Shown one piece after another: positions 15,205-37,311 of a stretch of DNA of 64,000 bases (position 1 is the first letter of the stretch; the number at the start of each line of letters is the position of its first letter). The position numbers and the translations under genes were made by a program. The notes beneath the pieces were generated by a model. It searched no databases and was not told the DNA's origin. It was given only the letters and a program-made list of their open reading frames with translations. The stretch lies in NCBI GenBank assembly GCA_963768715.1, contig CAVYJC010000010.1:151458-215457 (forward strand), read 5' to 3'. Source of the DNA: an uncultured Bacteroidota bacterium. Its GTDB lineage: Bacteria > Bacteroidota > Rhodothermia > Rhodothermales > DATKEJ01.

Positions 15205-17592
15205 TTATTCTTTCACGTTTGACGTATGCCGGAGAAAATGCTCCTGGCAATTGAGAGAGTCCTCCAAAGGGTCCAAATCGGGTCGTGCGAACGAGCCGTC
15301 AGACTGCATGATACGTACCTTCTGGTTGTCGGCAAGATACGTTGTCAGGATTGAGTCTTTGAGTCGCCGAATCATGTCGCGATCCTCGATCGGAAATAGA
15401 ATCTCGACTCGACGGTTAAGATTGCGAGGCATCATATCGGCGCTTCCGAGATAGATAACCTCGTTTCCTGCATTTCGGAAGTAGTAAATGCGGCTGTGCT
15501 CGAGAAATCGTCCGACGATGCTCCGTACGGTAATGTTGTCGCTGACACCCGGCAGACCGGGACGCAGACAACACACGCCGCGGACGATCAGCTCGACGCG
15601 AACTCCTGCCTGGGACGCCTCGTAAAGCAGCCGGATTATTCCACTATCGACGAGCGAGTTCATTTTGAACACCAAATGGCCCCCGCGTCCCGCCTTCTGA
15701 TGATCGATCTCGCGCTTGATGAGCTCCTCCATCTTGAGCCGGAGCGACACAGGAGCCACGAACAGCTTCCTATAGGTCTTCTGCGCGGAATACCCCGTGA
15801 GAAAATTGAAGAGGTCGGTCGCGTCGGCGCCGATGTCCGGATCAGCGGTGAAGTAGCCGAGATCCTCATACAGGCGAGCCGTGACCGAGTTATAGTTGCC
15901 AGTCGCCAGATGGATATATCGCCGGATGTGCTCCCCCTCCGATCTCACCACCAGTGCAATCTTCGAGTGCGTCTTTAGTCCGAGCAGTCCATAGATCACG
16001 TGTACGCCGGCGTCTTCGAGGACCTTCGCCCAGCCAATGTTGCTTTCCTCGTCGAACCGCGCCTTGAGTTCGACCAGCACGGTCACCTGTTTGCCATTTT
16101 CCCGTGCGTGAAGCAGCGCTTCCACGACTGGCGAGTTTCTTCCGACCCGATAGAGCGTCTGTTTGATCGCGAGCACGTGCGGATCGTGTGCTGCTTCCTC
16201 GAGGAAAGTGATAACGGGGTCGAACGACTCGTATGGCTGATGAAGGAGGAAGTTTTGCTTCCTGATTGCGCTGAATATGTCTGCGTCGCGCACGTCGGTG
16301 CGCAAGGCATCGGGCGTCGTCGGAAGGAATGGAGAATAGAGCAGGTCGAATCGATCCACCTTCCGCCCGAGGTTGAATAGCGAGCTCAAACCAAGCGGCC
16401 CTTCCAGTACGTAGGCATCACGACGATCCATTGCCAGGTTCTCCGACAGGATCTGGCGCAAATCTTCGGGCATCGACGGATTCACCGATACACGGACGAC
16501 CGATCCGAAACGTCGTTTCCTGACACTCTGCTCAACAGATTCGAGTAGATCGGCGGCCTCCAGCTCCTGGATCGCCATGTCGGCATTCCGCGTCACGCGA
16601 AACGGGTGACTTTCGACGACCTCAATGCCGGGGAACAGGGCGCCCAGGTTCGTGGCGATGACCTGCTCGGTCCATACGAAATAGTGGTCGTACGGTACCG
16701 TACCGTCTTTCCGGACGCTGCCCGATGACCTCTTTACGGGGATGAGCCTGGGTATCGAACCGGGCACTTTCAGCCGCGCAAAATGCGTCTGGCCATCGGG
16801 TTTCCTGACCCGCACGGCAAGGTTCAAACTCAGGTTCGAAATGTGTGGAAAGGGGTGACCCGGATCGAACGCCATTGGCGTGAGCACGGGGAAAATGTTC
16901 TGATCGAAATAGTCCTTCGCAACCAACTTCTGCCTTTCAGTCAGCTCATCGTAATTGCTTATGTGGATGCCATTGCGATCCAGCTCGGGCAGCAGATCAT
17001 GAAGGAGAACGCGTCGTGATTCGATCATGAGCTCGTGGGCGACCTTTCGGATGGCGGCCACCTGCTCGGCGGGCGTCATCGCGTCGGGTGACGAATCAGC
17101 GATTCCGGCCTCGATTTGCATCCTCAAACCCCCGACGCGCACCATGAAGAACTCATCCAGGTTCGATGCCACAATGCCAATGAACTTGACTCGCTCGAGG
17201 AGTGGATTACCCGGGTCCTTGGCCTCGTCGAGCACGCGCCGCTGAAACTCCAAGAGACTCAACTCGCGGTTGAGGTAGAGTTTGGGGTCATACAGGCTGA
17301 TCACCCGCTTCGATGAATCCGCCGACCGATCCACTGATGGGCGCCCGTCTCCACCGAACTCGATGTCATCGAGCACCTTCTGAAACATCTCGAGACCATC
17401 CGAAAGGAAGGTCCGTCGCCAGTGGCGGACGCGGGCAGGCGACATGTCAAGCTCGTCTGCTATCTGCTGGGTGCCGTGGCCATCCTGATAGAGCAGAAGC
17501 ACCATGGCGCGCCGGCGTGCGGCCTCGTCGGAGGTGTTCTCCGCGAGGCGAGACAGTGTCGCCTTGTCGCGTTCACTCAGAAGCTCGCTCAT
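15205..17592 (-). CDS. ppk: polyphosphate kinase 1 with a ~100-aa N-terminal HTH extension
   Basis: 795 aa. The canonical PPK1 core starts at ~residue 105 ('YLNRELSLLEFQRRVL', 'SNLDEFFMVRV'). The autophosphorylated His region 'GLKTHSKIALVVR' and two PLD-like C-domains are present. Confidence 0.95.
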   Translation of the reverse strand: MSELLSERDKATLSRLAENTSDEAARRRAMVLLLYQDGHGTQQIADELDMSPARVRHWRRTFLSDGLEMFQKVLDDIEFGGDGRPSVDRSADSSKRVISLYDPKLYLNRELSLLEFQRRVLDEAKDPGNPLLERVKFIGIVASNLDEFFMVRVGGLRMQIEAGIADSSPDAMTPAEQVAAIRKVAHELMIESRRVLLHDLLPELDRNGIHISNYDELTERQKLVAKDYFDQNIFPVLTPMAFDPGHPFPHISNLSLNLAVRVRKPDGQTHFARLKVPGSIPRLIPVKRSSGSVRKDGTVPYDHYFVWTEQVIATNLGALFPGIEVVESHPFRVTRNADMAIQELEAADLLESVEQSVRKRRFGSVVRVSVNPSMPEDLRQILSENLAMDRRDAYVLEGPLGLSSLFNLGRKVDRFDLLYSPFLPTTPDALRTDVRDADIFSAIRKQNFLLHQPYESFDPVITFLEEAAHDPHVLAIKQTLYRVGRNSPVVEALLHARENGKQVTVLVELKARFDEESNIGWAKVLEDAGVHVIYGLLGLKTHSKIALVVRSEGEHIRRYIHLATGNYNSVTARLYEDLGYFTADPDIGADATDLFNFLTGYSAQKTYRKLFVAPVSLRLKMEELIKREIDHQKAGRGGHLVFKMNSLVDSGIIRLLYEASQAGVRVELIVRGVCCLRPGLPGVSDNITVRSIVGRFLEHSRIYYFRNAGNEVIYLGSADMMPRNLNRRVEILFPIEDRDMIRRLKDSILTTYLADNQKVRIMQSDGSFARPDLDPLEDSLNCQEHFLRHTSNVKE

Positions 17593-17777
17593 GATCGCTT
17601 GTCCGGACAGGAAAGCTTAAACCTAATCATCGGTGGTATTACAATTTAGGTCAGGGCGCCGAGTCGGGTAAGAACGTTTTAGGGCGTCCCGGGTTCAACG
17701 CGTCGACCATTCAATGAGTGGTCGCTGAAACTTACCTTCCTGAATCTTTTTCATCTGCTCGCGGCCTTTTCGACTCT

Positions 17778-18962
17778 ATGGCGATCTTCGTTACAGATCC
17801 CTCGGAAGACAGCAAGGTGCCTTTCCTTCGAGGCATCCTGACCCGTTCGCTACAGCAGGCGGGGATGGAATTCGAAGAGGCCTACGAGATTGCGGACCGC
17901 GTCCGTGACTCACTTGGATCAGACGCCGAGATTACCTCCGGTCAGCTCTCCAAACTGGTAGCGAAGCAGCTTCAGGAGTTGGGGCACTCCGAAATCGCGA
18001 AGCGATATCTGAAGCGATCGGTGCCATTGAATCGGATCACCGTACTCGATCGTGACGGACTGCCGCAGCCGTTCTCTAAGGCAAGATTGTCACAGGGTCT
18101 GGAAACCTGTGCGCTTTCGGAGGCCCGCTGCTACGCCATTACGGCGCATATCGAGCAGACCCTTCTTCAGCGGGGTATTCGGGAAATTCAATCGCGCGAG
18201 TTGATCCGGCTCACCTACGAGTACCTTCTCCGCCAAGAATCGAAGGAAGTGGCAAGACGCTATCTGGTCTGGTTCGAGTTCTCCCGGAGCGGCCGACCCC
18301 TTGTGTTGCTGATCGGCGGAACAACCGGGTCGGGCAAGAGCACGATCGGAGCGGAGATCGCGCACCGGCTGAACATCATCCGCACGCAGTCGACCGATCT
18401 TCTCCGCGAGGTGATGCGGCTGATGGTGCCCGAACGTCTGCTGCCCGCTCTGCACACGTCGTCGTTCAGCGCATGGAAGACACTGCCGACCGCGGAAGAC
18501 TTGACCGAGCCGACGTTAAATGGCGATTTCGAGCAGGGCTTCCTGATTCAGGCAAGCCAGGTCGGCGTTGCCATAGAAGGCGTCGTGAGTCGAGCGGAAA
18601 CGGAGCAGATATCGTTGATACTGGAGGGGGTGCACGTACATCCCGCCCTCCAGAACAATATTCGGAGTACATCAGGCGTCATCGTCGTACCAATTCTGCT
18701 TGCCGTGCTGAAGCGAAAGCAGCTTCGAAAACAACTCAAGGGGCGCGGCCATCAGGTCTCGACGCGGCGCGCCGAGCGCTATTTGGAACACTTCGATGAA
18801 ATCTGGCACCTGCAGAGCTTTCTCCTGCGGGAAGCAGACCGTTTCAATATCCCGATTATCTCCAATACCGATCAGGATGAAACGATCAAGAGCATCATGA
18901 CGACCATTGTGGATCGACTCTCCGAAGAATTTGCCGGAGATCCGAAGCAGATGCTCGGCTGA
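17778..18962 (+). CDS. two tandem ATP-cone domains fused to a P-loop kinase (2-phosphoglycerate kinase-like, COG2074-type)
   Basis: Two ATP-cone-like segments are visible ('IFVTDPSEDSKVPFLRGIL...', 'ITVLDRDGLPQPFSKARL...'), followed by the Walker A 'GGTTGSGKST'. The track start at 17718 is a GTG; the ATG at 17778 is preferred. Confidence 0.6.
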   Translation: MAIFVTDPSEDSKVPFLRGILTRSLQQAGMEFEEAYEIADRVRDSLGSDAEITSGQLSKLVAKQLQELGHSEIAKRYLKRSVPLNRITVLDRDGLPQPFSKARLSQGLETCALSEARCYAITAHIEQTLLQRGIREIQSRELIRLTYEYLLRQESKEVARRYLVWFEFSRSGRPLVLLIGGTTGSGKSTIGAEIAHRLNIIRTQSTDLLREVMRLMVPERLLPALHTSSFSAWKTLPTAEDLTEPTLNGDFEQGFLIQASQVGVAIEGVVSRAETEQISLILEGVHVHPALQNNIRSTSGVIVVPILLAVLKRKQLRKQLKGRGHQVSTRRAERYLEHFDEIWHLQSFLLREADRFNIPIISNTDQDETIKSIMTTIVDRLSEEFAGDPKQMLG

Positions 18963-18978
18963 ATCCACCTATTGATAT

Positions 18979-20247
18979 ATGAAGCGACACAAGGGACTGA
19001 TGATCGTATTGGACGGTCTTGGCGATCGTCCTACCAAAACCCTGAACGGCCTGACACCGCTCGAGGCGGCAAACATCCCGACACTCGACCGCCTGGCGGC
19101 TGAAGGACAGACCGGCTTTGTCTCTCCTCTCGAACCATGGGTACCGGTCGGCACCCAGACGGGGATGGGTATGCTGATGGGCCTGGCAAAGGCCGACGCG
19201 CGTCTCCTCACGCGAGGGCCTGTCGAAGCGGCCGGCTGTGGAATCCCACTCAAGGCCGGAGACGTCGCGCTGCGCTGCAACCTGGCGACCATTTCTTCGA
19301 ACGGATCGGGGTTCGACCTGCTCGACAGGAGGGCCGGTCGCATCACCGAGGGCGTGGATGAACTCTTGCTTCCAATCGACGGACTCTCTCTGGGCAACGG
19401 AATCTCTGTCAGAGCCCGACCGTCGACGCATCACCGGGCGGTCGTGTCTCTGGTTGGAGAAGACCTCTCAGGTGCTGTCACCGACACCGATCCCGGTGCC
19501 GGTCTCGAGGATCAGGGCGTCCTCGTCTCCCACCCTCGCGACGACAGCGAGGCCGCGGCGCGAACTGCGGTGGCGATTAACGCGCTCATCCGTCTGGCCC
19601 ACGAAGCCATGGCCGCTCATCCAGTAAACAAGGAACGCCAGTCGCGCGGAGAGCATCCCGCTAACGGATTGATCACGCGGGGGGCGGGCATGGTGTTTTC
19701 AACGCGGAACCTGATCGCGCACCTCGGCCTCAAGGCGGCAGTAATTACGGGCGAAGGCACAGTCATTGGCTTGGGGAGTCTTTTCGGCTTCGACGTGATC
19801 GTTCGCGATTCGTTCGACGCTTTGCCATCGACGGATATCGAGGGGAAACTCGCCGCGGCTTCGGAAGCCCTCGCCACCCATGATCTTGCAATCGTTCACG
19901 TCAAGGCAACCGACGTGCTCGCGCACGACGGCGATTCGGTCGGAAAAGCGAGGTTTCTGGAACGATTCGATGCGGCACTCTCGAAGCTGGCCCTCGACGA
20001 ACTTGCCGTCGCCGTTACGGGAGATCATACGACCGACTCCAACTCCGGACGTCATACGGGCGACCCTGTGCCGGCGCTGATCAGAGCTCCAGAAGGTCGC
20101 TTGGACGGCGTGACTGTGTTCTCAGAGAGCAGCTGCCTCGCGGGCGGACTCGGGTATTTGTCCGCCACGTCATTCCTTTGCTGCCTGCTGGACTTAATGA
20201 ATCGGATGCATCTCCACCGGGCGTACGAGCACTATTTCTACGAGTAG
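18979..20247 (+). CDS. apgM: cofactor-independent phosphoglycerate mutase, archaeal type (ApgM family)
   Basis: 422 aa. 'LMIVLDGLGDRP...LTPLEAANIPTLDRLA', 'HVKATDVLAHDG' and 'VTGDHTTDS' match the alkaline-phosphatase-superfamily ApgM pattern. Confidence 0.8.
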   Translation: MKRHKGLMIVLDGLGDRPTKTLNGLTPLEAANIPTLDRLAAEGQTGFVSPLEPWVPVGTQTGMGMLMGLAKADARLLTRGPVEAAGCGIPLKAGDVALRCNLATISSNGSGFDLLDRRAGRITEGVDELLLPIDGLSLGNGISVRARPSTHHRAVVSLVGEDLSGAVTDTDPGAGLEDQGVLVSHPRDDSEAAARTAVAINALIRLAHEAMAAHPVNKERQSRGEHPANGLITRGAGMVFSTRNLIAHLGLKAAVITGEGTVIGLGSLFGFDVIVRDSFDALPSTDIEGKLAAASEALATHDLAIVHVKATDVLAHDGDSVGKARFLERFDAALSKLALDELAVAVTGDHTTDSNSGRHTGDPVPALIRAPEGRLDGVTVFSESSCLAGGLGYLSATSFLCCLLDLMNRMHLHRAYEHYFYE

Positions 20248-20286: not shown

Positions 20287-21552
20287 TCAACCGAAGATGC
20301 CGCGCAGAACGAAGAAGAATAGGGCGGCCAGACCTGCGCCGATCGGGAGTGTGACCAGCCATGAAATGATGATTCGGCCGATGACGCGAAGATCCAGGGC
20401 GGCAAAGCCGCGCGCGAGACCAACGCCCATCACCGCACCAACGAGAATGTGTGTCGTAGAAACGGGGATTCCCGTCCGCGAAGCGACCACGACCGTCGCA
20501 GCAGCGGCAAGCTCCGCGCAGAATCCACGTGTCGGTGTCAGCTCGGTAATCTTCTCGCCGATGGTTCGCATGACGCGATAGCCCATCGTCGCGAGACCGC
20601 TGACAATGCCCGCGCCGCCCAGAAGCAGAATCCATAACGGCAGTTCCGAGCTCTGCGCCACCTCACCTCCGGACTTCACGATGCTCGCGACGGCAGCCAG
20701 CGGACCGATCCCGTTCGCGACGTCATTCGATCCATGGGCAAACGCCATCGCGCAGGCAGTGAATATCTGCATGGGCGCAAAGACGCGTTCGACGCTCGCA
20801 AAGTGATAGGTCTTCTCCCCGGCGGGATCCGGCTGCTTTCGACGAATGACGCTCCAACCGATGACACCTGCGATGAGACCCACAACGGCCGCCCAGAAGA
20901 GACTCATTCCGAACGAAAGCGTAATATCGAGATGCGTCAGGCCCTTGAAGAGTGTCACGAGGGCGATCAGAAACCCGACAAGCGTCACATAGGCGGGGCC
21001 CCATTTCTTTGCATTCTCAAATGGATGCTCGGTGTCCAGAATCAAACGCCGGACAGATACCATGAGAAGCAGTGCAATGAGTCCACCGAGTATCGGCGAA
21101 ACGACCCAACTCGCGACGATTTCAGTCACCGTGCCCCACTGCACGCCGTCGACGCCAATTCCGACGACGGCAAAGCCGACGATGGCGCCCACAATCGAGT
21201 GTGTGGTCGACACGGGCCATCCGCGTGCCGAAGCAATCATCAGCCAGACTCCTGCTGCGAGAAGCGACGCCAGCATCCCGTAAATGATGAGCTCCGGGTG
21301 ACCGATGAGAGGTGCGGGATCGACCACGCCTTTTCGGATCGTGGATGTGACGTGTCCGCCGGCAAGGACTACGCCGGCAAATTCGAATATGGCGGCAACC
21401 AGAATGGCCTTCCGCACGGTGAGCGCGCCCGAGCCCACGGAAGTCCCCATCGCGTTCGCCACATCGTTCGCCCCAACGCCCCAGGTCATGTAGAACCCGA
21501 AAGCGGCCGCCAGCCCAACAAACCAGGTACCGTAAGTCGCGACGATTTCCAT
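20287..21552 (-). CDS. pit: inorganic phosphate transporter, PiT family
   Basis: 421 aa, polytopic, with the duplicated 'GANDVANAMGTSVGS' / 'GSNDVANGIGP' signature. Confidence 0.9.
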   Translation of the reverse strand: MEIVATYGTWFVGLAAAFGFYMTWGVGANDVANAMGTSVGSGALTVRKAILVAAIFEFAGVVLAGGHVTSTIRKGVVDPAPLIGHPELIIYGMLASLLAAGVWLMIASARGWPVSTTHSIVGAIVGFAVVGIGVDGVQWGTVTEIVASWVVSPILGGLIALLLMVSVRRLILDTEHPFENAKKWGPAYVTLVGFLIALVTLFKGLTHLDITLSFGMSLFWAAVVGLIAGVIGWSVIRRKQPDPAGEKTYHFASVERVFAPMQIFTACAMAFAHGSNDVANGIGPLAAVASIVKSGGEVAQSSELPLWILLLGGAGIVSGLATMGYRVMRTIGEKITELTPTRGFCAELAAAATVVVASRTGIPVSTTHILVGAVMGVGLARGFAALDLRVIGRIIISWLVTLPIGAGLAALFFFVLRGIFG

Positions 21553-21576
21553 TAAGCGGCGATTTGAAGCATGATG

Positions 21577-22257
21577 CTACCGGGCTATCAGTAGTCGCAG
21601 ACGATTCCCGACCTTTTCGGCGTAATCGGCAAGATCACCGATCCATTCGATCAGCTGGTACCAGAACATGACGGAAACGGGCGAGAGCGAGTCCTCTCGA
21701 TCGAAAAGCGCTCTTCCCAGCGCAACGCCCAGTTTGTCCGTCTCCTCTTCCGATGCGTTGAGTGCCGACACCATCTCTTCCACCTGAGCCGCTTCCCGAC
21801 CTCCGAAGCCCATCGCGAGCAGCTCGTCGAGCTCCGCGATAATGTCGGCCGACTGGTGGCAGACGGCGACGCATCGGTCGACCATTTTCGTGAGATCCTC
21901 CTCCATCCCGTCCGGGATTGTCATTCGCCGCTCTACGAGGAGCCCGGCAATGTCCTGCGCCACGTCCGCAATCGAGTCCTGCATGTCGAGTACCTCGAGA
22001 AGATCTCGACGATCGACGGGAAGAAACAGGCTGCGGGGAAGGTGCCGCCGAAGATCGTTCTTGATTCGGTCGGCTTCCTCCTCGGCGGCATAGATCGCCT
22101 CCTTTGCCTCTGCGACGGCAGCAACATCTCCGTCGGCGAGTGCCTTGAAAAGACCGGGGACGATGTCGACGGTGGCTATTGCCGCCGTCATGTGCTCTTG
22201 CAGCGACGTGAAGGGGTTATTCCCGAAAAGACTCGCAAACGGATTGGTCGGCGGCAC
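21577..22257 (-). CDS. DUF47 / TIGR00153-family Pit accessory protein (PhoU-related)
   Basis: 226 aa, all-helical, with a 'EEEADRIK.DLRRHL' pattern. It lies directly upstream of pit, as is typical for this family. Confidence 0.8.
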   Translation of the reverse strand: MPPTNPFASLFGNNPFTSLQEHMTAAIATVDIVPGLFKALADGDVAAVAEAKEAIYAAEEEADRIKNDLRRHLPRSLFLPVDRRDLLEVLDMQDSIADVAQDIAGLLVERRMTIPDGMEEDLTKMVDRCVAVCHQSADIIAELDELLAMGFGGREAAQVEEMVSALNASEEETDKLGVALGRALFDREDSLSPVSVMFWYQLIEWIGDLADYAEKVGNRLRLLIAR

Positions 22258-22328: not shown

Positions 22329-23156
22329 TCAGCCGTACCGCCCTTCGATGTAATCGGCGGTCTCCTTACGCTCCGGGCGGAGAAAGAGCTCCTCCGTCTT
22401 TGCATGTTCGACCATCTTTCCCATCAGCATGAATGCACATTCATCGCTCGCCCGGCGAGCCTGCGCCATATTGTGTGTGACGAGCAGGATGGTGTACTGC
22501 CCACGAAGACGCCAGATGAGATCCTCTACGGCCTCCGTCGCCTCAGGATCGAGTGCGGAGCAAGGTTCGTCCATCAGAATTACCGCCGGCTTGACGGGGA
22601 CGAGCCGGGCGATGCAGAGTTTCTGCTGCTCTTCGAGCGACAATTCCGTAGCCCTTTGATCGAGACGATCTTTCACGCGATCCCAGAGGAGGACCTCCCG
22701 AAGCGCCTCTTCAACGATCCGTTCTCCTTCGGCGGCAGGAATACGCCCCTTGCGGGCCTCGTGGAGCGAGTATCCGAAAAGGACATTCTGTCGGATGGAT
22801 ATCGGCAGTGGATTCGGTCGCTGGAATACCATGCCGATCTGCTTGCGTAGCTGCGCGAGGTCCACTAACGGGTCGAATATGTCGTTTCCGAGTACCTCGA
22901 TACGACCCTCCGTACGTACATAGCCCAGGCGCTCGTTGATCCGGTTTACCGATCTGAGCAGGGTGGACTTGCCACATCCCGACGGGCCGATCAGCGACGT
23001 GACCAGGCCGCGCTTTACCTGGAAATTGATGTCGAACAGCGCCTGGAAGGTGCCGTACCAGAGATTCAGGCTGTGCGTCTGTATGGCCAGATCCGACGGA
23101 TGCTCCAGGGATGGAGATGTCGCTCGGGAAGGTTCTTGGCTCGCCGTATCGCTCAT
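22329..23156 (-). CDS. pstB: phosphate ABC transporter ATP-binding protein PstB, with a degenerate signature motif
   Basis: It has Walker A 'GPSGCGKST', Q-loop 'VFQRPNP', Walker B 'ILMDEPCSALD', H-loop 'VTHNM' and the C-terminal 'DYIEGRYG'. The ABC signature reads 'LSLEEQQKL' instead of LSGGQQQRL. Confidence 0.9.
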   Translation of the reverse strand: MSDTASQEPSRATSPSLEHPSDLAIQTHSLNLWYGTFQALFDINFQVKRGLVTSLIGPSGCGKSTLLRSVNRINERLGYVRTEGRIEVLGNDIFDPLVDLAQLRKQIGMVFQRPNPLPISIRQNVLFGYSLHEARKGRIPAAEGERIVEEALREVLLWDRVKDRLDQRATELSLEEQQKLCIARLVPVKPAVILMDEPCSALDPEATEAVEDLIWRLRGQYTILLVTHNMAQARRASDECAFMLMGKMVEHAKTEELFLRPERKETADYIEGRYG

Positions 23157-23165
23157 GGTATTCGC

Positions 23166-23954
23166 TCAGCCAAATCGGCCGAGAATGTAGTCGTGCGTTC
23201 TCTGGTCTTTGACGTTCCCCTCGAAGAGATCCTCTGTCTTACCGATCTCCACGCAGCGACCGCTCAGGAAAAAGGCGGTTCGCTCGGCCAGCCGTCGCGC
23301 CTGCTGTACCAGGTTGGTCACCAGGACGATTGTAATCTCTTTCCGCAACTCCTTGAGGACATCCTCGATTCGCATCGTCGTTACAGGATCGACGGCGATC
23401 GAAAATTCGTCGAGCACGAGCAACCTTGGCTCCTGTGACAAAGCCCTGGCAATCGTGAGTCGCTGTTGCTGGCCGCCCGACAGGAGGCTGCCAAGCGAGT
23501 TCAGTCGGTCCTTCACCTCGTCCCACAACGCGGCCCGGCTCAGACACCGTTCGACAATTTCATCGAGACGCCTCTTGTCCTTGATCCCCGACAGGCGAGG
23601 AGCGAGCGCCACGTTGTCGTAGACGCTCAGGGGAAGTCCGACCGGGAGTGGAAAGACCACGCCGATTTGGCTTCTCAGCGCATATACATTCCGCCACTCG
23701 GTCACGTCGCGGCCGAGAAAGCGGATTGTGCCCGACACTTTCATGTCGGTATTGAACAAGTCCATCCGACTCAACGCCCGTAGAAAGGACGTTTTGCCGC
23801 TATTGGCCGGACCGATAATGCCGAAAATCTCGTGTTCGTTCACCTGGAGGTTCACGTCGTTGAGCGCTTCGGTCGGTCCGTAGTGGACCGACAGATTCCG
23901 GACGTCCAGAACCGGTTTATACTCTTGTTGGGACCCGTCGAGTGCTTCCGTCAT
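23166..23954 (-). CDS. second PstB-like ATP-binding protein, with degenerate Q-loop and H-loop
   Basis: Walker A is 'GPANSGKTS' and the signature 'LSGGQQQRL' is intact. The Q-loop is 'VVFPLP' (Q->P) and the H-loop is 'LVTNLV' (H->N). The start was set at the ATG at 23954, 5 nt past the pstA stop. Confidence 0.85.
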   Translation of the reverse strand: MTEALDGSQQEYKPVLDVRNLSVHYGPTEALNDVNLQVNEHEIFGIIGPANSGKTSFLRALSRMDLFNTDMKVSGTIRFLGRDVTEWRNVYALRSQIGVVFPLPVGLPLSVYDNVALAPRLSGIKDKRRLDEIVERCLSRAALWDEVKDRLNSLGSLLSGGQQQRLTIARALSQEPRLLVLDEFSIAVDPVTTMRIEDVLKELRKEITIVLVTNLVQQARRLAERTAFFLSGRCVEIGKTEDLFEGNVKDQRTHDYILGRFG

Positions 23955-23958
23955 CACG

Positions 23959-24834
23959 TTACCACTTCTTCCTGCCTCTGAGGTACACCCGAAATCCGAT
24001 CGATAGCGCATTCATGACCAGTACGATCATGATCAGCAGGAGTGCTACGCCGTACGGGAGGGCGTCGGGCACATTCGGAACCTGCGTCGAAACGACGAAC
24101 AGGTGCAACGAAAGAGCCATCGTCTGATCGAATACCGACTCGGGAAGGAACGGGAGAAAGAATGCAGCCCCGGTGAACATGATGGGTGCTGTCTCCCCCG
24201 CCGTTCGGGAGACCTCCAGAATGATACCTGTAAGGATGCCTGAAATGGCGTTCGGAAGGACGATTCGCCGAATGGTCTGCCAGCGCGTGGCGCCCATGCT
24301 CCAGCATGCCTCGCGAAAGGCCATCGGGACAGCCTGAAGTGATTCGCGCGTCGAGACGATCACTACGGGCAAAGTCATGATCGCGAGCGTCAAGCTGGCT
24401 GCGAGAATGCTGGTGCCGATCCCGAAGAACAGGACGAACGCGCCGACGCCGAAAAGGGCGTATACGATGGATGGAACGCCGGCCAGGTTGATAATCGCCA
24501 GATTGATCATCCGCGTCAACATATTGTCGGGCGCGTACTCACTGAGATAGACGGCGGCGGCGACTCCGAGGGGTACCGAAAAGAGCAACGCCGTGGCTAC
24601 CAGGAGGATCGTTCCCAGCAGAGCCGGGAAGATGCCGCCTGCGGTCATCCCCTGCGTCGGAAACGTGAACAGGAATTCTGTCGAAATCATCGGGCCGCCC
24701 CTGATGACGAGGAGGCTGAGGATGATGAGTACCGGAAGGATCAGCAGCACCGTCATCACCCCGAAAAGCAGACGGAACTGCTGCTGAATACGGCGGTCGC
24801 GGTCGTTTCTTTTGGTGGCGGCAAACAAGCTCAT
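23959..24834 (-). CDS. pstA: phosphate ABC transporter permease PstA
   Basis: Polytopic permease with the 'REACWSMGATRWQTI' EAA-loop region. The ATG at 24834 overlaps the pstC stop (ATGA). The longer track ORF is an Arg-rich extension. Confidence 0.9.
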   Translation of the reverse strand: MSLFAATKRNDRDRRIQQQFRLLFGVMTVLLILPVLIILSLLVIRGGPMISTEFLFTFPTQGMTAGGIFPALLGTILLVATALLFSVPLGVAAAVYLSEYAPDNMLTRMINLAIINLAGVPSIVYALFGVGAFVLFFGIGTSILAASLTLAIMTLPVVIVSTRESLQAVPMAFREACWSMGATRWQTIRRIVLPNAISGILTGIILEVSRTAGETAPIMFTGAAFFLPFLPESVFDQTMALSLHLFVVSTQVPNVPDALPYGVALLLIMIVLVMNALSIGFRVYLRGRKKW

Positions 24835-25763
24835 CGGTGCCTCCGGTTGCCTCTCCTGACAACGATGTCCGCCGTCAGGTTGATCACGAAAGTCACGAGA
24901 AAGAGGAGGATACCGAGTGTGAACAGCGCCCCGTAATGTGGCGAACCGACGGCTGTCTCCCCTAATTCCGCGGCGATCGTCGCCGTGAGAGCGCGAACGG
25001 AATCGAATATGCTGGTTGGCATCTGGATCGCGTGGCCACTTGCCATGAGTACGGCCATCGTCTCGCCGAAGCCGCGACCGATCCCAAGGAGAACGGCCGA
25101 GACCAATCCGTTTCGGCCTGCCGGAATGACGACCTTTCGAATTACTTGCCACTTCGTCGCACCCATCGCTTCGGCTGCCTGACGAAAGTCGTCAGGGACA
25201 GCCTTGAGCGCATCCTCCGCAATCGTGGTCATTATCGGCGCTGCCATCAGGCCGAGGATAATCCCCGCGTTGAGCACGTTGAGTCCGATCGGCACGTCGA
25301 ACAGCTTGATGATCAGCGAATTCATGACGCTCAGACCGATAAATCCCCAGACAACCGAAGGGATCGCCGCGAGCAGTTCCACCAGTACTTTGAGTGTCTC
25401 TCGCGTTTTGCCCGATGCGAATTCACCGATGTAGATCGCCGCACCGAGGGAAAATGGTATCGCTACCACCATGGCCATGCCGGTCACGCTGGCAGTTCCT
25501 GCAATGAGCGCGAGCGCACCGTAGGTTGGATGGCGTTCCGAAGTAGGCACCCATCGCGGCGACGTGAAGAACTCTGCGAACTTGAAATCGCCCGTGATGA
25601 AAGAGAGGCCTTCCTTCGTGATGAATACAAAGATGCCGATGATGAAGATCACGGCGGACACGCCCCCGATAAAGAAGGCGATCTGGGCGAACTTGTCGAT
25701 GTACCAGCTCGCTCCTCTGGCGTCCAAGCCACCCTCGTAAGATCCGTCTCTACTTGAAGCCAC
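24831..25763 (-). CDS. pstC: phosphate ABC transporter permease PstC
   Basis: 310 aa, polytopic, with the 'FRQAAEAMGATKWQVI' EAA loop. Confidence 0.9.
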   Translation of the reverse strand: MASSRDGSYEGGLDARGASWYIDKFAQIAFFIGGVSAVIFIIGIFVFITKEGLSFITGDFKFAEFFTSPRWVPTSERHPTYGALALIAGTASVTGMAMVVAIPFSLGAAIYIGEFASGKTRETLKVLVELLAAIPSVVWGFIGLSVMNSLIIKLFDVPIGLNVLNAGIILGLMAAPIMTTIAEDALKAVPDDFRQAAEAMGATKWQVIRKVVIPAGRNGLVSAVLLGIGRGFGETMAVLMASGHAIQMPTSIFDSVRALTATIAAELGETAVGSPHYGALFTLGILLFLVTFVINLTADIVVRRGNRRHR

Positions 25764-25766
25764 GGT

Positions 25767-26849
25767 CTAAGAGAAGTCCTCCCCACGCAATGTTGTCATG
25801 AGCGAAGCGATATAGCCCGAAAGGATGCGGTAGAGGTCCTCCAGAGACTGCTCGTCATCAGGCGACGCCTTGGGCAGGTCCCACCATGTGACGATCACTG
25901 TGTTGAACGGCGCGGGATCGATCACTGCGGCGCTGTCGGGTTCGAGACAGACGATAACCTTGTAGTCGGACCAGGATTCCAGGTCTTTCGCTGCTGTCGG
26001 GCGCAGGTCGGAGGTTTCGTGGCCCAGCCTTTCCAGGAGATCCTTGCAAGCCTTGCTGATCGTCTGCGCCGGTTCGATTCCCGCCGTGGAATAGACGCCG
26101 TGATCGGGATAAGCCTTCTTCGCAATTGCGAGCGCGGTGGGTCCGAGGAGGTCGTTTGATCGATCCAGAAACAGGACGGGCACAGGCTTGCGCTTTTTCG
26201 TCTCTCCGTCGACGACGAAAATGGCGTACTCGCAGACGTTCTTCGCCTGATCGCTGACCCGCTCGAGCATGCTGAGGATAACGAGCGTTCCGAGCAGGTC
26301 GTCCAACGGCCGCTCTGATTCTGCCCCGGTTCTGACGAGCTGCCCGAACGCGACATCGAAGGATTCATCGATTTGTGCCTCGAGAATCATCGTTCCCCGG
26401 GCCAGATCCGCATTTTCCTCGACAAACGCTTTCACCGACTGCTCGAACATCTCGATCGATTCGTGACCTATCAGGCGAATTTCCGACGCCAGCGGATCGA
26501 TGATGGGGGCCTTCAGGCGCGTCGCCTCACGACAAATCGTCGCGGCATAGTCTCCGACGCGTTCGAGTACGACATTGGCTCTAAGGACCGACGAGATCAA
26601 GCGAAGATGACCAGCGGCGGGTAGATGCCTTGCTACGAAGTGGTGGCAGGCTCGATCGCATGCCTCCACCGCGCGATTTATTGGATTGTCTTCGAGGATC
26701 GTCCGATATGCGAGCCGGCTGTCGTGGTGCTCAAGCGCCCGTAGCGACTGCTTGAGGGCAGTCGCTACGAGAACGCCGATTTTCTGGACGCGATCCTTGA
26801 TGTCTTTGAGGTCCTGCTCGAGGCGAACCTCATAGTGATGCTCAGTCAT
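25767..26849 (-). CDS. PhoU-domain protein fused to a catalytically degenerate LMW-PTP/ArsC-like domain
   Basis: The N-terminal ~220 aa carry two PhoU repeats ('LERVGDYAATI', 'LERVSDQAKNV'). The C-terminal ~135 aa are colinear with the LMW phosphatase/ArsC fold ('VLFLDRSNDLLGP', 'VYSTAGIE', 'VIVCLEPD', 'WWDLP') but lack the CX5R Cys and Arg. Confidence 0.75.
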   Translation of the reverse strand: MTEHHYEVRLEQDLKDIKDRVQKIGVLVATALKQSLRALEHHDSRLAYRTILEDNPINRAVEACDRACHHFVARHLPAAGHLRLISSVLRANVVLERVGDYAATICREATRLKAPIIDPLASEIRLIGHESIEMFEQSVKAFVEENADLARGTMILEAQIDESFDVAFGQLVRTGAESERPLDDLLGTLVILSMLERVSDQAKNVCEYAIFVVDGETKKRKPVPVLFLDRSNDLLGPTALAIAKKAYPDHGVYSTAGIEPAQTISKACKDLLERLGHETSDLRPTAAKDLESWSDYKVIVCLEPDSAAVIDPAPFNTVIVTWWDLPKASPDDEQSLEDLYRILSGYIASLMTTLRGEDFS

Positions 26850-26874: not shown

Positions 26875-27756
26875 TTAGGGACAGGTCACAGGGTGCGCCG
26901 GCGCATATCCCTTGTTGAGGATGATGCACTGGCCGGTGTCGCTCAGGATCCAGTCCAGGTACTCTTTGACCGCGCCTTCGGGTTGGTGTGCCGTGTACAT
27001 GAACAGTGGGCGCGCAATCGGATAGCTCCGGTCGACGGCCGTCTCGATCGAGGGCGCAACCGGCTCTTCCCCTGCCGCCGTCTCAACCGGAACGAGTTTG
27101 ACTTCGTCGGTAGCGTAGGCCAATCCGGAGTAGCCGATGGCGCACGGCGTATTCTGAACGAGGTCTACGACGTCCTTTGAGCCCTGCATATCGCGCGAAC
27201 CCAGTTTGTAGTCACCTTCTCCGAGAATCGTCTCGCGGAAATAGGCATAGGTGCCGGAGTTGTTCTGACGGCTGACGCGGATGATTTCCTGATCTTTACA
27301 TCCCGGTACCTCAAATCCCAGATCGGTCCATTTCGTGATTGTGCCATTCTCCCCGTAGATCCCGGCAAGCTGATCGAATGTGAACGACTCGACCGGGTTG
27401 TTCTTGTTGACGTAAACGGCGAGGGCGTCGTAGCCGACGACGAACTCGACCGGCTGCTGGCCATTGGCACGTGCCTGGTCGATTTCCGAGTCTTTCATAG
27501 AGCGACTCGCGTTGGCGATATCTACAGTCCCGTTGATAAGGGCCGCGATTCCGGTTCCCGAGCCCCCGCCGGTGACGGCCACCGCGACGTTGGGATCGAC
27601 GTTGCGATAGGCCTCCGCCCACGCCTGGGCTACGTTCACAAGCGTATCGGAACCCTTGTTTTGGATGACGCTGCGCTGGGAGCCGCCGCCACCGCCGCAT
27701 CCGGCGACGATCAGGAAGGCTGCCGCGAACCGCGCGGTATACTTAAGGTGTTTCAT
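26875..27756 (-). CDS. pstS: phosphate ABC transporter substrate-binding lipoprotein PstS
   Basis: It has the lipobox 'IVAGCGG', plus 'GSDTL', 'GGGSGTGIAALINGTVDIANASR' and 'YSGLAY'. Confidence 0.9.
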   Translation of the reverse strand: MKHLKYTARFAAAFLIVAGCGGGGGSQRSVIQNKGSDTLVNVAQAWAEAYRNVDPNVAVAVTGGGSGTGIAALINGTVDIANASRSMKDSEIDQARANGQQPVEFVVGYDALAVYVNKNNPVESFTFDQLAGIYGENGTITKWTDLGFEVPGCKDQEIIRVSRQNNSGTYAYFRETILGEGDYKLGSRDMQGSKDVVDLVQNTPCAIGYSGLAYATDEVKLVPVETAAGEEPVAPSIETAVDRSYPIARPLFMYTAHQPEGAVKEYLDWILSDTGQCIILNKGYAPAHPVTCP

Positions 27757-27767
27757 TGTGGAAGTAG

Positions 27768-28481
27768 TTATTGGTTTGTTACGATGTCGTTACGATGTCG
27801 CCCGCCATGCCGGACATCAATCCCCTCGAGCCAGAAAAGCACCGATTCGGCGATGTTGACACAGTGATCGGCAATCCGCTCGAGTGATTTGCTGAGCGCA
27901 AAAATCCGCGCTCCAAGGGTGAAGGCACGATCGGTGCGTTCCTGTCGCTCCATCAAGAGATCGAGGGTCCGACGATGGAGGCGGTTGACTGCGGACTCAT
28001 TTGATATCAGCTCCCACGCCCGCTTCCGGTCGCCTCGTGTAAAGGCGTCCTGAGCACTGTAGAGCATCCCTCGCACGGCGTCAACCATCCGATCGAAATG
28101 ATCTCCCGGCAAGTGGGAGATCAAGCGTGGCTGCTCCGCACCCGCCCTCGCCAGATTCCTGCAGTGATCTCCCATCCGCTCGAGATCGGTGTTGATCTTG
28201 ATCGCCGTCATCACGAAACGGATCGTCTCGCGGTCCGTCGGTCGCGTCGCGATCACGGCCTCGCACATGCCGTCGATTTCCATTTCGAGATCGTCGATGA
28301 AGTCGTCCCGGCGACCAACACGCTCGGCGACCTTCTCGTCACTCGACAAGACAGCGTTCAACGATTCTGCAAGCTGCTCGTCGACGGCATTGAACATGAC
28401 ATAGAGACGCTCACGAATAGCCGACGTGGCCGATCTTTCGTCTCTCAGCGGCGAGGCTTGCGTCATTTCCATCATGATCAA
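27768..28481 (-). CDS. phoU: phosphate signalling complex protein PhoU
   Basis: 237 aa with two PhoU repeats ('LERMGDHCRNLA', 'LERIADHCVNIAE'). It overlaps the porin stop by 4 nt. Confidence 0.85.
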   Translation of the reverse strand: MIMMEMTQASPLRDERSATSAIRERLYVMFNAVDEQLAESLNAVLSSDEKVAERVGRRDDFIDDLEMEIDGMCEAVIATRPTDRETIRFVMTAIKINTDLERMGDHCRNLARAGAEQPRLISHLPGDHFDRMVDAVRGMLYSAQDAFTRGDRKRAWELISNESAVNRLHRRTLDLLMERQERTDRAFTLGARIFALSKSLERIADHCVNIAESVLFWLEGIDVRHGGRHRNDIVTNQ

Positions 28482-29600: not shown

Positions 29601-30275
29601 TCAGGCTGAAGGGGATGACCCGACTTCGTCGACGGGCCCCCTGATCCGTTCGTATGGCAGGACGACCGATGAGGCGATATTGGAGAGATGGGAGCTGACG
29701 CGTCCCATCATAAGCGCCGCGCTGCTTAGCACTACGGCTGCATTGACGCTGAGGTCGTCGGCTGACGCAACGTCCTCGATAAATACGCGCAGGTCGCTCT
29801 TGACTGCCGTGCTGTCGACCATGACTTCGCGCGCGCTCTTTACGTCGCCGTCGACGAAGCCCTTGTAGGTCTTATCGAACATCTTCGTGATTTGCTCTCC
29901 GGCAGAACGGAGCGTTGACAGACGCGGCCCAAGCAGGGGCTTTTCAGTCAGCTGGGCAAGCGCACCGATGTGCTTGACCCAGTCACCGATTCGCTCGCCG
30001 TCCTGCACCGTGCTGACCAGTGCCAGGCTGAGGACGAGGTCTTCGTGCGGCTGTTTTTCGATGTGCTTGAAGACCGCTTTGCGAATGCTTCGTTCGCGGG
30101 CATTGATGCCGTCGTCCATCTCCTGGAGCGACACCTCAAGCGGAACGCTGAACAGAAGGTGTGAAACGGCCGCCGACCACATTGATCGGGCGATATCGAT
30201 CACTTCGCCCATCTGCTGACTCGCCTTGCGAATGGGCGCAGGCGTATCGTCCCGAAAAAGGTCGAAAAGTCCCAA
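29601..30275 (-). CDS. PhoU-domain-containing protein (divergent paralog)
   Basis: 224 aa, helical. 'DDGINARERSIRK' and 'VQDGERIGDWVKHIG' fit the PhoU repeat pattern. The gene begins 6 nt after the rho stop. Confidence 0.65.
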   Translation of the reverse strand: MGLFDLFRDDTPAPIRKASQQMGEVIDIARSMWSAAVSHLLFSVPLEVSLQEMDDGINARERSIRKAVFKHIEKQPHEDLVLSLALVSTVQDGERIGDWVKHIGALAQLTEKPLLGPRLSTLRSAGEQITKMFDKTYKGFVDGDVKSAREVMVDSTAVKSDLRVFIEDVASADDLSVNAAVVLSSAALMMGRVSSHLSNIASSVVLPYERIRGPVDEVGSSPSA

Positions 30276-30281
30276 TCCAGA

Positions 30282-32048
30282 CTACGAGTTCATTACAACG
30301 AGGAACTCCTCGTTGTTGCGCGTACTCCGCATCTTGTCGATTTGGAATTGCATGGCTTCCAGGGGACTCATATCGGCCAGGATGCCCCGGAGGATCCAAA
30401 TGCGCTTGAGCAGCGCCTCGTTGATAAGGAACTCTTCGCGGCGGGTGCCCGACTTCAGGATATTGATCGACGGGAAGACGCGGCGATCCGACAACTCGCG
30501 ATCGAGCACGAGTTCCATATTGCCCGTGCCTTTGAACTCTTCGAAGATGACCTCGTCCATTCGGCTCCCGGTGTCAACGAGGGCCGTCCCGATGATTGTC
30601 AGCGATCCGCCTTCCTCCACATTCCGAGCGGCGCCGAAGAATCTCTTCGGACCACGAAGCGCCGTGGCTTCGAGGCCCCCAGACAGCGTCTTGCCCGTAT
30701 TCGGAGCAACGGAGTTGTGAGCGCGCGCGAGTCGAGTAATGGAGTCGAGCAGAATGACCACGTCCTGCCCAGCCTCGACGAGTCGCTTGGCCTTCTCGAG
30801 GACGATGTTCGAGACGTCGACGTGTCGCTGCGGATCCTGGTCGAACGTGGATGCGATCACTTCACCCTGGATGTTGCGCTCCATGTCGGTCACCTCTTCA
30901 GGTCGCTCGTCTACGAGCAACACAATGAGGTAGGTTTCCGGATGGTTTTTCGTGATGGCGTTGGCAATCTTCTGAAGCAGGATGGTCTTGCCGGTCTTCG
31001 GCTGCGCGACAATGAGCCCGCGCTGGCCCTTGCCAATCGGCGAAAACATGTCCATCACCCGCATACTGACCTCGTCTGCCGTCGTCTCCAATCGAAGTTG
31101 CTCGTCCGGATAGAGCGGAGTCAGATAGTCGAAGTTGGTCCGTTCCTCCATGTCTCCGGACGGCCGGCCGTTGATCGTCGTCAGGCGGATGAGGGCGAAA
31201 AAGCGCTCGCCTTCTTTGGGCGGCCGGACTTCTCCATTGATCGTATCTCCGAGGCGAAGGCTGAATCGCTTGATCTGCGAAGGAGACACGTAAATGTCGT
31301 CGGGGCTGGGTAAGTAATTGTAGTCGGGCGAGCGGAGGAATCCGTATCCATCCGGCAGAATCTCGAGCACGCCCACTTTGGAAATGATCCCATCGAGATC
31401 CGTCTTGTTGGGATCGTAGTCCGTCATGTAGGATGGGCGATCCGCGGGTACCGGCCGGCGCTGACGCTCGGGACGACCCCGTCGCTGCCCTCCGCCGCCA
31501 CCTTCGCGACGCGGTCCTTTCCCCTTCTGGTTCCGGCCACGGCGATTGCCGCGTCCCCCTCGGCGATCATCACGACCATTGCGGTCTGAGCCGCGGTCAG
31601 CCCCCCGGTCGGAACCTCGATCGGACCCACGGTCGGATCCACGGTCGGAACCTCGATCAGCTCCCCGGTCCGAATTCGACGATCCGCTATCATCCCGATC
31701 CGACGAGGAATCACGATCTCGCGTGTCCTTTGAATCTTGCGGGTTCGAATCGTTGTCGTGCGACCTTTCGTCTTTGCGTTCTTTCGTTTCAGCTTCGCGA
31801 TGATTGCCTTTACGATCAGAGTCCTGGTCTTGCACGGTTTCAGCCTCTTTCGGTTTGCTGGAATTCCGGCGGCCGGACGGCATACTCTCAGAGGCCGCGA
31901 CAGCGTCGATGATTTTGTATACGAGGTCCTGCTTTCGCAGGCCAGTGACACCGGCAATACCTAACTGTTTTGCGATGTCCTGCAACTCCGTGACTTTGGC
32001 TTCACGGAGGCTAGAAATGTTGATCAAGTCCAGGTCAATCCTTGGCAT
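30282..32048 (-). CDS. rho: transcription termination factor Rho with a ~150-aa disordered N-terminal insertion
   Basis: 588 aa with Rho_N ('[18 protein letters not shown]'), the CSD-like RNA-binding domain ('[15 protein letters not shown]'), Walker A 'AQPKTGKT' and '[10 protein letters not shown]'. Confidence 0.95.
31578..31673 (-). repeat. in-frame tandem 12-nt repeats encoding (SDRG/ADRG)n inside rho
   Basis: The translation reads [32 protein letters not shown] (residues ~126-157). Confidence 0.8.
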
Positions 32049-37256: not shown

Positions 37257-37311
37257 ACGTTTTCGGATGAGCGTGTCGGGAAGGAGCCTGTCGGCGCCCA
37301 AACCGGTCCGT

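Follow-up and report, generated by a model that had tools for sequence, protein, structure and literature searches.

A PhoU protein fused to a pseudo-arsenate-reductase domain in a Pst operon with two unequal ATPases

Introduction

It has long been asked by what means PhoU and the Pst transporter signal that phosphate is sufficient, and a gene of an uncultured Bacteroidota bacterium (Rhodothermales; GenBank assembly GCA_963768715.1, contig CAVYJC010000010.1) opens this question to experiment from an unusual side. The gene lies between pstS and pstC in a 64,000-nucleotide stretch (positions 151,458 to 215,457 of the contig), hereafter called the window. It encodes a protein in which a PhoU half is followed by a linker of about 8 residues and by a C-terminal half of another kind. 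The initial annotation, made from the letters alone, had read this protein as a two-repeat PhoU of about 220 residues joined to a catalytically dead domain of the low-molecular-weight (LMW) phosphatase or arsenate reductase (ArsC) fold, and had proposed it as a plausible direct sensor of phosphate or arsenate. The questions raised by the locus are what the second half is, how widely it is joined to PhoU, what transporter it accompanies and whether a pocket without its chemistry could still serve in sensing.

Results

Two domains in one open reading frame

The open reading frame starts 25 nt downstream of pstS (26875-27756), and its stop codon is followed after 3 nt by the predicted start of pstC at 25763. 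Its location between the two genes and its length of 360 amino acids (aa) were as first described. All the strings that the initial annotation had quoted were located in the translation, namely LERVGDYAATI (aa 95-105) and LERVSDQAKNV (aa 195-205) in the PhoU half, and VLFLDRSNDLLGP (aa 225-237), VYSTAGIE (aa 252-259), KVIVCLEPD (aa 297-305) and TWWDLP (aa 321-326) in the C-terminal half.

The N-terminal half was matched twice by the PhoU family PF01895 (E=4.9e-26) and scored 132.4 bits with TIGR02135, narrowly above the equivalog cut-off of 130.25. Each repeat carries an E/D-xxx-D motif (E96-x3-D100, aa 96-100, and E196-x3-D200, aa 196-200); across the relatives E96, R97, G99 and D100 are invariant and D200 and Q201 are at least 90% conserved. 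Helices span aa 2-214 in the AlphaFold2 (AF2) model of the full-length protein, on which Foldseek superposed the PhoU of P. aeruginosa (4Q25) with a template modelling (TM) score of 0.94 and a root mean square deviation (rmsd) of 1.5 A. This half is a member of the PhoU family by every sequence and structure criterion, and the two-repeat reading of it holds.

The C-terminal half gave nothing when searched as a single sequence: its 142 aa had zero Pfam matches even at E<=10, PF01451 included, and phmmer against the PDB returned only chance matches to SAM-lyase (E about 1.3). A search of the PDB with a profile of 44 relatives gave an end-to-end match to 1JL3, the ArsC of B. subtilis (E=6e-12; positions 7-139 of the profile with residues 6-136 of the chain), followed by the arsenate reductases of Synechocystis, Corynebacterium, Archaeoglobus and S. 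aureus pI258, with the classical LMW protein tyrosine phosphatases (PTPs) scoring lower. PF01451 was matched individually by 28 of the 44 relatives (best E=1.9e-11). The AF2 model of the domain alone (pLDDT, the predicted local distance difference test, 95.2; pTM, the predicted TM score, 0.90) has strands (E) and helices (H) in the order E5-11, H17-28, E33-39, E80-83, E100-103 and H115-137, with a four-stranded parallel sheet and the P-loop between beta1 and alpha1. Foldseek placed ArsC2 8P5N, Cg_ArsC2 3RH0 and pI258 ArsC 1JF8 on top (probability 1.00, TM 0.80-0.87, rmsd 2.0 A), and phosphatases of the Wzb type ranked behind them. The domain has the fold of the LMW-phosphatase superfamily and is closest to the thioredoxin-type ArsC branch. 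The profile, the model and the structure search thus bear out the fold first proposed and narrow it to this branch; an unrelated fold, which the initial annotation had named as a finding that would count against it, is not what they show. The reading of the protein as PhoU followed by a phosphatase- or ArsC-like domain stands on family, profile and structure matches alike.

Loss of the catalytic residues

The hidden Markov model (HMM) alignment to 1JL3 placed Asp229 at the nucleophile Cys10 of ArsC, Leu235 at the P-loop arginine Arg16, Gly236 at the P-loop Ser17 and Lys327 at the general acid Asp105, and the conserved Trp101 corresponded to Trp323, which is near-invariant in the family. In the window protein there is neither a C-x5-R-(S/T) loop nor an Asp-Pro general acid nor the Cys10/Cys82/Cys89 relay. 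TWWDLP, proposed at first as the acid loop, is present as a string, but its Asp lies off the general-acid position, which is taken by Lys327.

Column counts were made on the 200 best-scoring full-length relatives; the clade statistics given here and below come from the best-scoring 117-200 sequences, in which close relatives may be over-represented. The nucleophile position 229 is acidic in 193 of the 200 (D166/E27) and is never Cys. At position 235 we found L87, R26, A21 and W11, the Arg being kept in 13%, and scattered lineages within the clade of the window protein still have Arg or Lys in the P-loop. Position 232 is mostly Asn (N123, D49) and position 236 is Ser, Gly, Ala or Thr in 198/200. 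The P-loop shows zero length variation and the Ser-Ala-Gly end of the following strand is conserved; Asn232, Ser/Thr255 and the small residue at 236 are conserved family-wide.

An intact C-x5-R elsewhere in the domain, which the initial annotation had named as a finding that would count against a dead domain, was looked for as well. The only literal candidate, CKDLLER (aa 268-274), lies inside helix alpha2, and the column of its Cys holds Cys in 36/200 relatives; because it is helical and its Cys is not conserved, we take it as a chance match, and any literal C-x5-R within the domain occurs in 18/200 relatives. The loss of the nucleophilic Cys (to Asp) and of the Arg (to Leu) was corroborated by both the alignment and the column counts, and the early judgement that catalysis was very unlikely agrees with the replacement of all the catalytic residues. 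Judged from these residues, the window protein cannot be credited with the chemistry of a phosphatase or a reductase, and it would be wrong to name the domain arsenate reductase or phosphatase, since it fails every catalytic criterion of both.

Distribution of the fusion

With the C-terminal domain alone as query, a word-indexed search for homologues gave 1 match because of its k-mer prefilter, and a full-length search and exhaustive HMMER were used instead. The full-length search yielded 713 relatives, with the same architecture across the top 120; these were 331-368 aa long, except for one truncated entry of 262 aa, and about half of them had a precomputed PF01451 match. Exhaustive HMMER with the C-terminal domain returned 167 clusters at 50% identity, nearly all of them matched at about residues 220-360 of proteins of about 355-366 aa. 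Stand-alone versions of the domain were considered and rejected, the short matches being truncated gene calls that begin mid-PhoU; the C-terminal domain is essentially never free-standing. The sole match with another architecture was a repeat protein of 1,397 aa (P0231), in which six stretches matched aa 13-59 of the domain query.

The mapping of the fusion that the initial annotation had called for showed it to be widespread. In a scan of species-representative genomes, in which the best 80 of at least 529 PhoU relatives were retained, the fusion architecture was present in 80/80 loci from at least 8 phyla. These loci span Rhodothermales, Acidobacteriota, Gemmatimonadota, Planctomycetota, Gammaproteobacteria (among them Chromatiaceae, Sedimenticolaceae, Thiodiazotropha and tubeworm symbionts), Myxococcota (Polyangiaceae) and SAR324, the closest of those retained being from Rhodothermales (74% identity). 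Several taxon labels of metagenome-assembled genomes are doubtful. Four of them (L018, L041, L059 and L062, labelled Halobacteria archaeon, Enterobacterales, Actinomycetes and Rickettsiales) look out of keeping with the rest of the distribution; errors in binning or labelling may be the cause, or else horizontal transfer.

A frameshift, a misassembly or a wrong gene call that joined phoU to its neighbour would also give a chimaeric reading frame. The identical protein on an independent JGI contig, and the same architecture in hundreds of genomes and metagenomes with its apparent stand-alone matches explained by calls starting mid-PhoU, leave this explanation with next to no probability; hundreds of sequences with one architecture indicate that the fusion is neither chance nor an assembly artefact. 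We found the window gene almost certainly to encode a genuine two-domain protein, a complete PhoU plus a domain descended from a thioredoxin-type ArsC, in which the fold and the P-loop geometry persist while every catalytic side chain is gone. Databases label such proteins 'phosphate signaling complex protein PhoU', with the precomputed PF01451 match visible in many.

A Pst operon with an unequal PstB pair

The gene order pstS-fusion-pstC-pstA-pstB1-pstB2 was found in essentially every retained locus, barring truncated contigs and L029, where the fusion lies upstream of pstS. The two ATPases differ from the usual PstB in complementary ways. PstB1 has the H-loop VTNLVQQA (23298-23321), with His replaced by Asn, and the Walker B/D-loop LDEFSIAVDP (23385-23414), and keeps an intact LSGGQ signature; VTNLVQQA and DEFSIAVDP were each present in 62/62 orthologues, which also have LSGGQQQR intact. 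In PstB2 the Walker A, Walker B and H-loop are canonical and the degenerate signature LSLEEQQK (22620-22643) replaces LSGGQ; in its orthologues L-S-L-E is near-invariant (59-60/60), with E49/A7/Q4 as the fifth residue. The ordinary pst operons found nearby in two loci (L004 and L008) encode a PstB with the canonical LSGGQQQ and VTHNMQQA.

An ATP site of an ABC (ATP-binding cassette) transporter is formed by the Walker A, Walker B and H-loop of one subunit together with the signature of the other. The complementary degeneracy of the motifs therefore predicts one consensus ATP site and one degenerate site, the latter made of the PstB1 core and the PstB2 signature. This makes the operon a distinct subtype of Pst importer with asymmetric PstB1/PstB2, which the initial annotation had overlooked.

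As an observation apart, PstB1 is 71-78% identical between the window and loci of Rhodothermales, Acidobacteriota, Planctomycetota and Gammaproteobacteria (L003-L077), and the co-encoded fusion is only 40-47% identical across the same loci. This gap suggests unusually strong constraint or transfer of the operon.

In a metagenome scan that took PstB1 as its seed, two groups were distinguished. The first, group 1 (67-79% identity), has the gene order of the window wherever the upstream DNA suffices. Group 2 (53-64% identity) has the same ATPase asymmetry, with LQLEQQQK in PstB2 and VTNL[VT]QQA in PstB1, and in 11 of its loci (within L134-L161, e.g. L153:1771-2988) a PhoU-ArsC fusion lies upstream of pstS; a few others have an ordinary PhoU at the end of the operon (L133 and L157) or no PhoU in view (L146 and L160). 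A strict coupling of the asymmetric PstB pair to the fusion was rejected, in this one direction, on account of the two loci with an ordinary PhoU.

A sister clade with a fuller pocket

The fusions of group 2 belong to a sister clade of 2,678 matches at E<=1e-10, annotated as Verrucomicrobia and Methylomirabilota. Its domain (P0269-P0388) aligned with that of the window protein with an hhalign probability of 99.8% (E=1.2e-27). Among 117 sequences the P-loop reads D(116/117)-x-x-N(113)-x-C(115)-R(93)-S(116)-Q-M-A-E and the later motif W-x-x-x-D(113)-P(117) supplies the Asp-Pro general acid, which is thus kept in 97-100%, with the P-loop Arg at 79%; no cysteine occurs at the positions of Cys82 and Cys89. 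According to these alignments, the pocket of the sister clade departs from that of ArsC only by the replacement of Cys by Asp and the absent redox cysteines, and the retention of the oxyanion-handling set of ArsC (Arg, Ser, Asn and Asp-Pro) suggests an ancestral oxyanion pocket. The clade of the window protein looks like a further decayed derivative of this state.

With D-x5-R-S plus Asp-Pro in the sister clade, one may ask whether Asp229 could itself act as the nucleophile of an Asp-based phosphatase or of an enzyme that handles arsenate, as engineered Cys-to-Asp protein tyrosine phosphatases keep weak activity. The window protein, however, has lost the Arg, the general acid and all the redox cysteines, and the nucleophile position is Cys in 0/200 relatives, so that we hold a residual enzyme to be very improbable.

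Neighbouring genes

The annotated part of the window covers about 10-39 kb, and the features are listed in Table 1. A tightly packed phosphate block on the minus strand comprises, in order, rho, a weak PhoU-like gene, a putative outer-membrane barrel gene, phoU, pstS, the fusion, pstC, pstA, pstB1, pstB2, DUF47 and PiT, with the polyphosphate kinase gene ppk1 a few kb beyond the last two. Among the annotated genes of the window (about 10-39 kb) we found no ars genes (arsR, arsB or acr3 context) and saw no phoBR.

The stop of the putative barrel gene overlaps the phoU start, and loci of Rhodothermales repeatedly have this gene upstream of pstS; Pfam and NCBIfam gave no family for its 321-aa product, which may be a phosphate porin. 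The PiT-type permease matched PitA and CysP-like models below their cut-offs. Within 9 kb of the fusion there are three more genes of the PhoU superfamily, the canonical PhoU, the weak PhoU-like gene and DUF47/PhoU_div (21577-22257, minus strand).

Several other genes of the window have unusual features. Polyphosphate kinase 1 (15205-17592, minus strand) has an extra N-terminal helix-turn-helix (HTH_23 and HTH_29 at aa 25-68). At 17718-20247 (plus strand) a 2-phosphoglycerate-kinase-like gene, whose product has two stretches of the ATP-cone kind and scores 299 bits with NF003259 (cut-off 343, not reached), adjoins a gene resembling cofactor-independent phosphoglycerate mutase, a pair reminiscent of the archaeal metabolism of cyclic 2,3-diphosphoglycerate. 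The Rho factor (30282-32048, minus strand) has a long N-terminal insertion of Ser/Asp/Arg/Gly repeats (SDRGSDRG...), of low complexity at about 31500-31900. Finally, a gene at 35691-37301 (minus strand) joins a response-regulator receiver domain to a PglZ domain of the alkaline-phosphatase superfamily.

Table 1. Features of the phosphate block, with positions in the window
Feature	Position	Strand	Evidence or remark
Fusion of PhoU and pseudo-ArsC, open reading frame	25767..26849	-	ATG start, 360 aa plus stop
PhoU module, aa 1-217, two repeats, helical bundle	26199..26849	-	PF01895 x2, TIGR02135
Pseudo-ArsC module (LMW-phosphatase fold), aa 222-360	25770..26186	-	Profile vs 1JL3, AF2, Foldseek
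Degenerate P-loop D229-R-S-N232-D-L-L235-G236, vs ArsC C10-x5-R16-S17	26142..26165	-	HMM alignment
Redox-Cys positions, Cys82 to Glu303 and Cys89 to Ile310	25920..25943	-	HMM alignment
Post-beta4 loop W322-W323-D-L-P-K327	25869..25886	-	HMM alignment to ArsC
pstS, phosphate-binding protein	26875..27756	-	TIGR02136 244 bits, above cut-off 206.6; PF12849
pstC, permease	24831..25763	-	TIGR02138 275 bits, above cut-off 196
pstA, permease	23959..24861	-	TIGR00974 259.5 bits, above cut-off 193; start codon approximate
pstB1, divergent ATPase	23166..24011	-	TIGR00972 277 bits, below cut-off 343
pstB2, ATPase	22329..23156	-	TIGR00972 314.5 bits, below cut-off 343
DUF47 (PhoU_div) and PiT-type phosphate permease, downstream of pstB2	20287..22257	-	PF01865 E=1.9e-53
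phoU, canonical single-domain, 237 aa, directly upstream of pstS	27768..28481	-	TIGR02135 146.4 bits, above cut-off
Putative outer-membrane beta-barrel, 321 aa	28478..29443	-	Signal peptide and C-terminal Phe
Weak PhoU-like, 224 aa, adjoins rho	29601-30275	-	TIGR02135 62.7 bits, below cut-off

Discussion

The protein of the window represents a widespread and so far uncharacterised form of PhoU that is linked to a subtype of Pst with asymmetric ATPases, the PhoU family itself being known. It amounts to a natural experiment in which thousands of bacteria from many phyla have joined PhoU to a domain with oxyanion-binding ancestors; the chemistry has been removed from the fused domain and the binding residues have been retained in one clade. 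In the literature that we searched on PhoU with LMWPc, arsenate reductase, low molecular weight phosphatase fusion and pseudophosphatase, no description of the fusion was found, and annotation as plain 'PhoU' hides the extra domain. It is also the mark of a class of Pst importers with an asymmetric ATPase pair, of which we met no description in the literature searched. This class is relevant to models of phosphate and arsenate uptake in soil and marine Acidobacteriota, Rhodothermales, Verrucomicrobia and sulfur-oxidising symbionts.

The fusion is probably a regulatory subunit of this asymmetric-PstB subtype, and its conserved operon position supports its co-production with the transporter. The best explanation overall, to which we give about an even chance, is that of a PhoU brake or relay on Pst equipped with a dead ArsC regulatory module. 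The PhoU half would dock on the PstB dimer, like E. coli PhoU, and would act there as a transporter-bound brake or a signal relay; according to Gardner et al. 2014, as cited in PMC12096839, PhoU binds PstB, PhoR and metals. The ArsC half would then be a non-catalytic regulatory module of the pseudoenzyme kind. In its ancestral role the remnant P-loop would have held an oxyanion, phosphate or arsenate, by which the cytoplasmic oxyanion level could feed back on transport or signalling; such a use of the pocket is the simplest reading of the selection on Arg and Asp-Pro in a sister clade devoid of the nucleophile and the redox Cys. A carboxylate (Asp or Glu) at the bottom of the P-loop might mimic the negative charge of the thiolate, a situation compatible with an occupied anion cradle and for which Cys-to-Asp mutants of PTPs offer a charge-preserving analogy.

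Within the clade of the window protein the pocket appears to have decayed, with no Arg, no general acid and acidic surroundings. Since the Arg and the general acid are lost and the surroundings are acidic, binding of inorganic phosphate (Pi) by the window protein would be expected to be weak, in the millimolar range, or to be bridged by a metal; or else the domain would survive chiefly as a surface for docking. Several findings weigh against a brake or relay with a ligand in its ArsC half. The window protein has neither the general acid nor the P-loop Arg, and the Arg is missing from 87% of its clade. The loops presumed to line the pocket have a mean net charge of about -2.7 across the clade, which disfavours a bare anion. 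D229 and N232 could be conserved for structural reasons only, the carboxylate satisfying the P-loop amides. In addition, the fusion is not obligatory for a transporter with asymmetric PstB, as L133 and L157 make do with an ordinary PhoU, and in the window a canonical PhoU is encoded 1 kb upstream, so that two PhoU proteins coexist.

The same acidity could be read as a cation site, in which the ring of four carboxylates of the window protein (D229, D233, E303 and D324) would bind Mg2+ or Mn2+, possibly as metal-phosphate, and would extend the metal binding of PhoU. Two to four of these positions are acidic in 180/200 relatives, and E. coli PhoU binds Mn and Mg according to Gardner et al. 2014, as cited in PMC12096839. 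Yet acidity is strongly conserved at 229 only, 233, 303 and 324 being variable, and the membership of the four carboxylates in the pocket is taken from homology-based topology. The LMW-phosphatase fold, moreover, is not known to have a catalytic metal site, and we consider a cation site improbable.

Another possibility is that the dead ArsC domain has no small-molecule ligand and is only an adaptor, a rigid module for docking or spacing by which PhoU is matched to the asymmetric dimer of PstB1/PstB2 (e.g. beside the degenerate site) or to a kinase, with Asp229 plugging the P-loop for folding. The full-length AF2 model (pLDDT 94.1) has a pTM of 0.82, which suggests a defined relative orientation of the two halves and hence a fixed packing of the ArsC domain on PhoU. 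The adaptor would also account for the fact that the window clade can do without the P-loop Arg (only 13%) and without the general acid, for the variable side chains of the P-loop (entropies 2.4-3.3 bits), for the strongly acidic character of the domain (mean net charge -9) and for the constant company of PstB1/PstB2 in every window-type locus. It is hard to reconcile with the strong purifying selection on Arg, Ser and Asp-Pro in the sister clade; the length of the P-loop and the Asn232-Ser/Thr255 network are conserved as well, and a plain PhoU can serve an asymmetric PstB pair (L133 and L157). An adaptor without ligand is a possibility, although in our view a doubtful one.

As for a brake or relay that does bind an oxyanion, the proposal made at first of a phosphate or arsenate sensor is plausible for the family and weaker for the window protein, as far as the pocket residues can tell. 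That the dead ArsC domain binds a ligand in the family as a whole is conceivable but somewhat short of an even chance; that it does so in the window protein is rather unlikely. We would go further only speculatively: it is improbable, without being far-fetched, that the ArsC-derived domain is a cytoplasmic Pi/arsenate receptor within PhoU which relays the occupancy of its P-loop to the degenerate PstB site, resulting in trans-inhibition, Pho signalling or both. If this were true, no earlier physical element that senses Pi would have been identified in a PhoU system. With its Cys-to-Asp pseudo-ArsC and its degenerate PstB pair, the operon in any case brings the question of PhoU sensing within reach of experiment.

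Comparison with known systems

Tandem pstB genes are known from Firmicutes; in E. faecalis both genes have canonical motifs (PMC12096839), and the pstB1/pstB2 arrangement there is for this reason a different phenomenon. With ordinary PhoU (TIGR02135/PF01895; 4Q25 and Aquifex 1T72) the fusion shares the two repeats, the E/D-xxx-D motifs and the location in the pst operon, and it differs by its extra domain of about 140 aa and by its place between pstS and pstC, not at the end of the operon. Its second half has the fold, the length and the end-to-end co-linearity of thioredoxin-coupled ArsC (1JL3, S. aureus pI258 1LJL/1JF8, Synechocystis 2L17 and C. glutamicum 3RH0), with Phe8, Asn13, Ala20, the Ser-Ala-Gly motif and Trp101 (ArsC numbering) in common. 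In contrast to ArsC, it is found in a pst context, with no ars genes in the annotated part of the window, and five catalytic or redox residues are replaced. The Foldseek matches contained no solved structure that covered both the PhoU and the ArsC halves.

A pseudophosphatase of the PTP superfamily which keeps the fold, has its nucleophile replaced and is used in non-catalytic regulation is known in STYX. The domain of the fusion differs from it in belonging to the LMW/ArsC branch and not to the dual-specificity branch, in having Asp or Glu in place of the nucleophile and not Gly or Ser, and in being fused to a bacterial transporter regulator. ABC transporters with one degenerate nucleotide site are represented by the heterodimeric exporters TM287/288, TAP1/2 and CFTR; there are likewise two genes for nucleotide-binding domains in the present operon, with paired degeneracy of the H-loop and the signature, here in a type I importer. 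Finally, the C-terminal regulatory domains of MetN (C2), ModC and MalK mediate trans-inhibition in ABC importers. By analogy, the logic proposed here would be the same, a cytoplasmic ligand domain that throttles the ATPase, except that the candidate domain is carried by PhoU and not by the ATPase, its fold is unrelated and its role in this system is putative.

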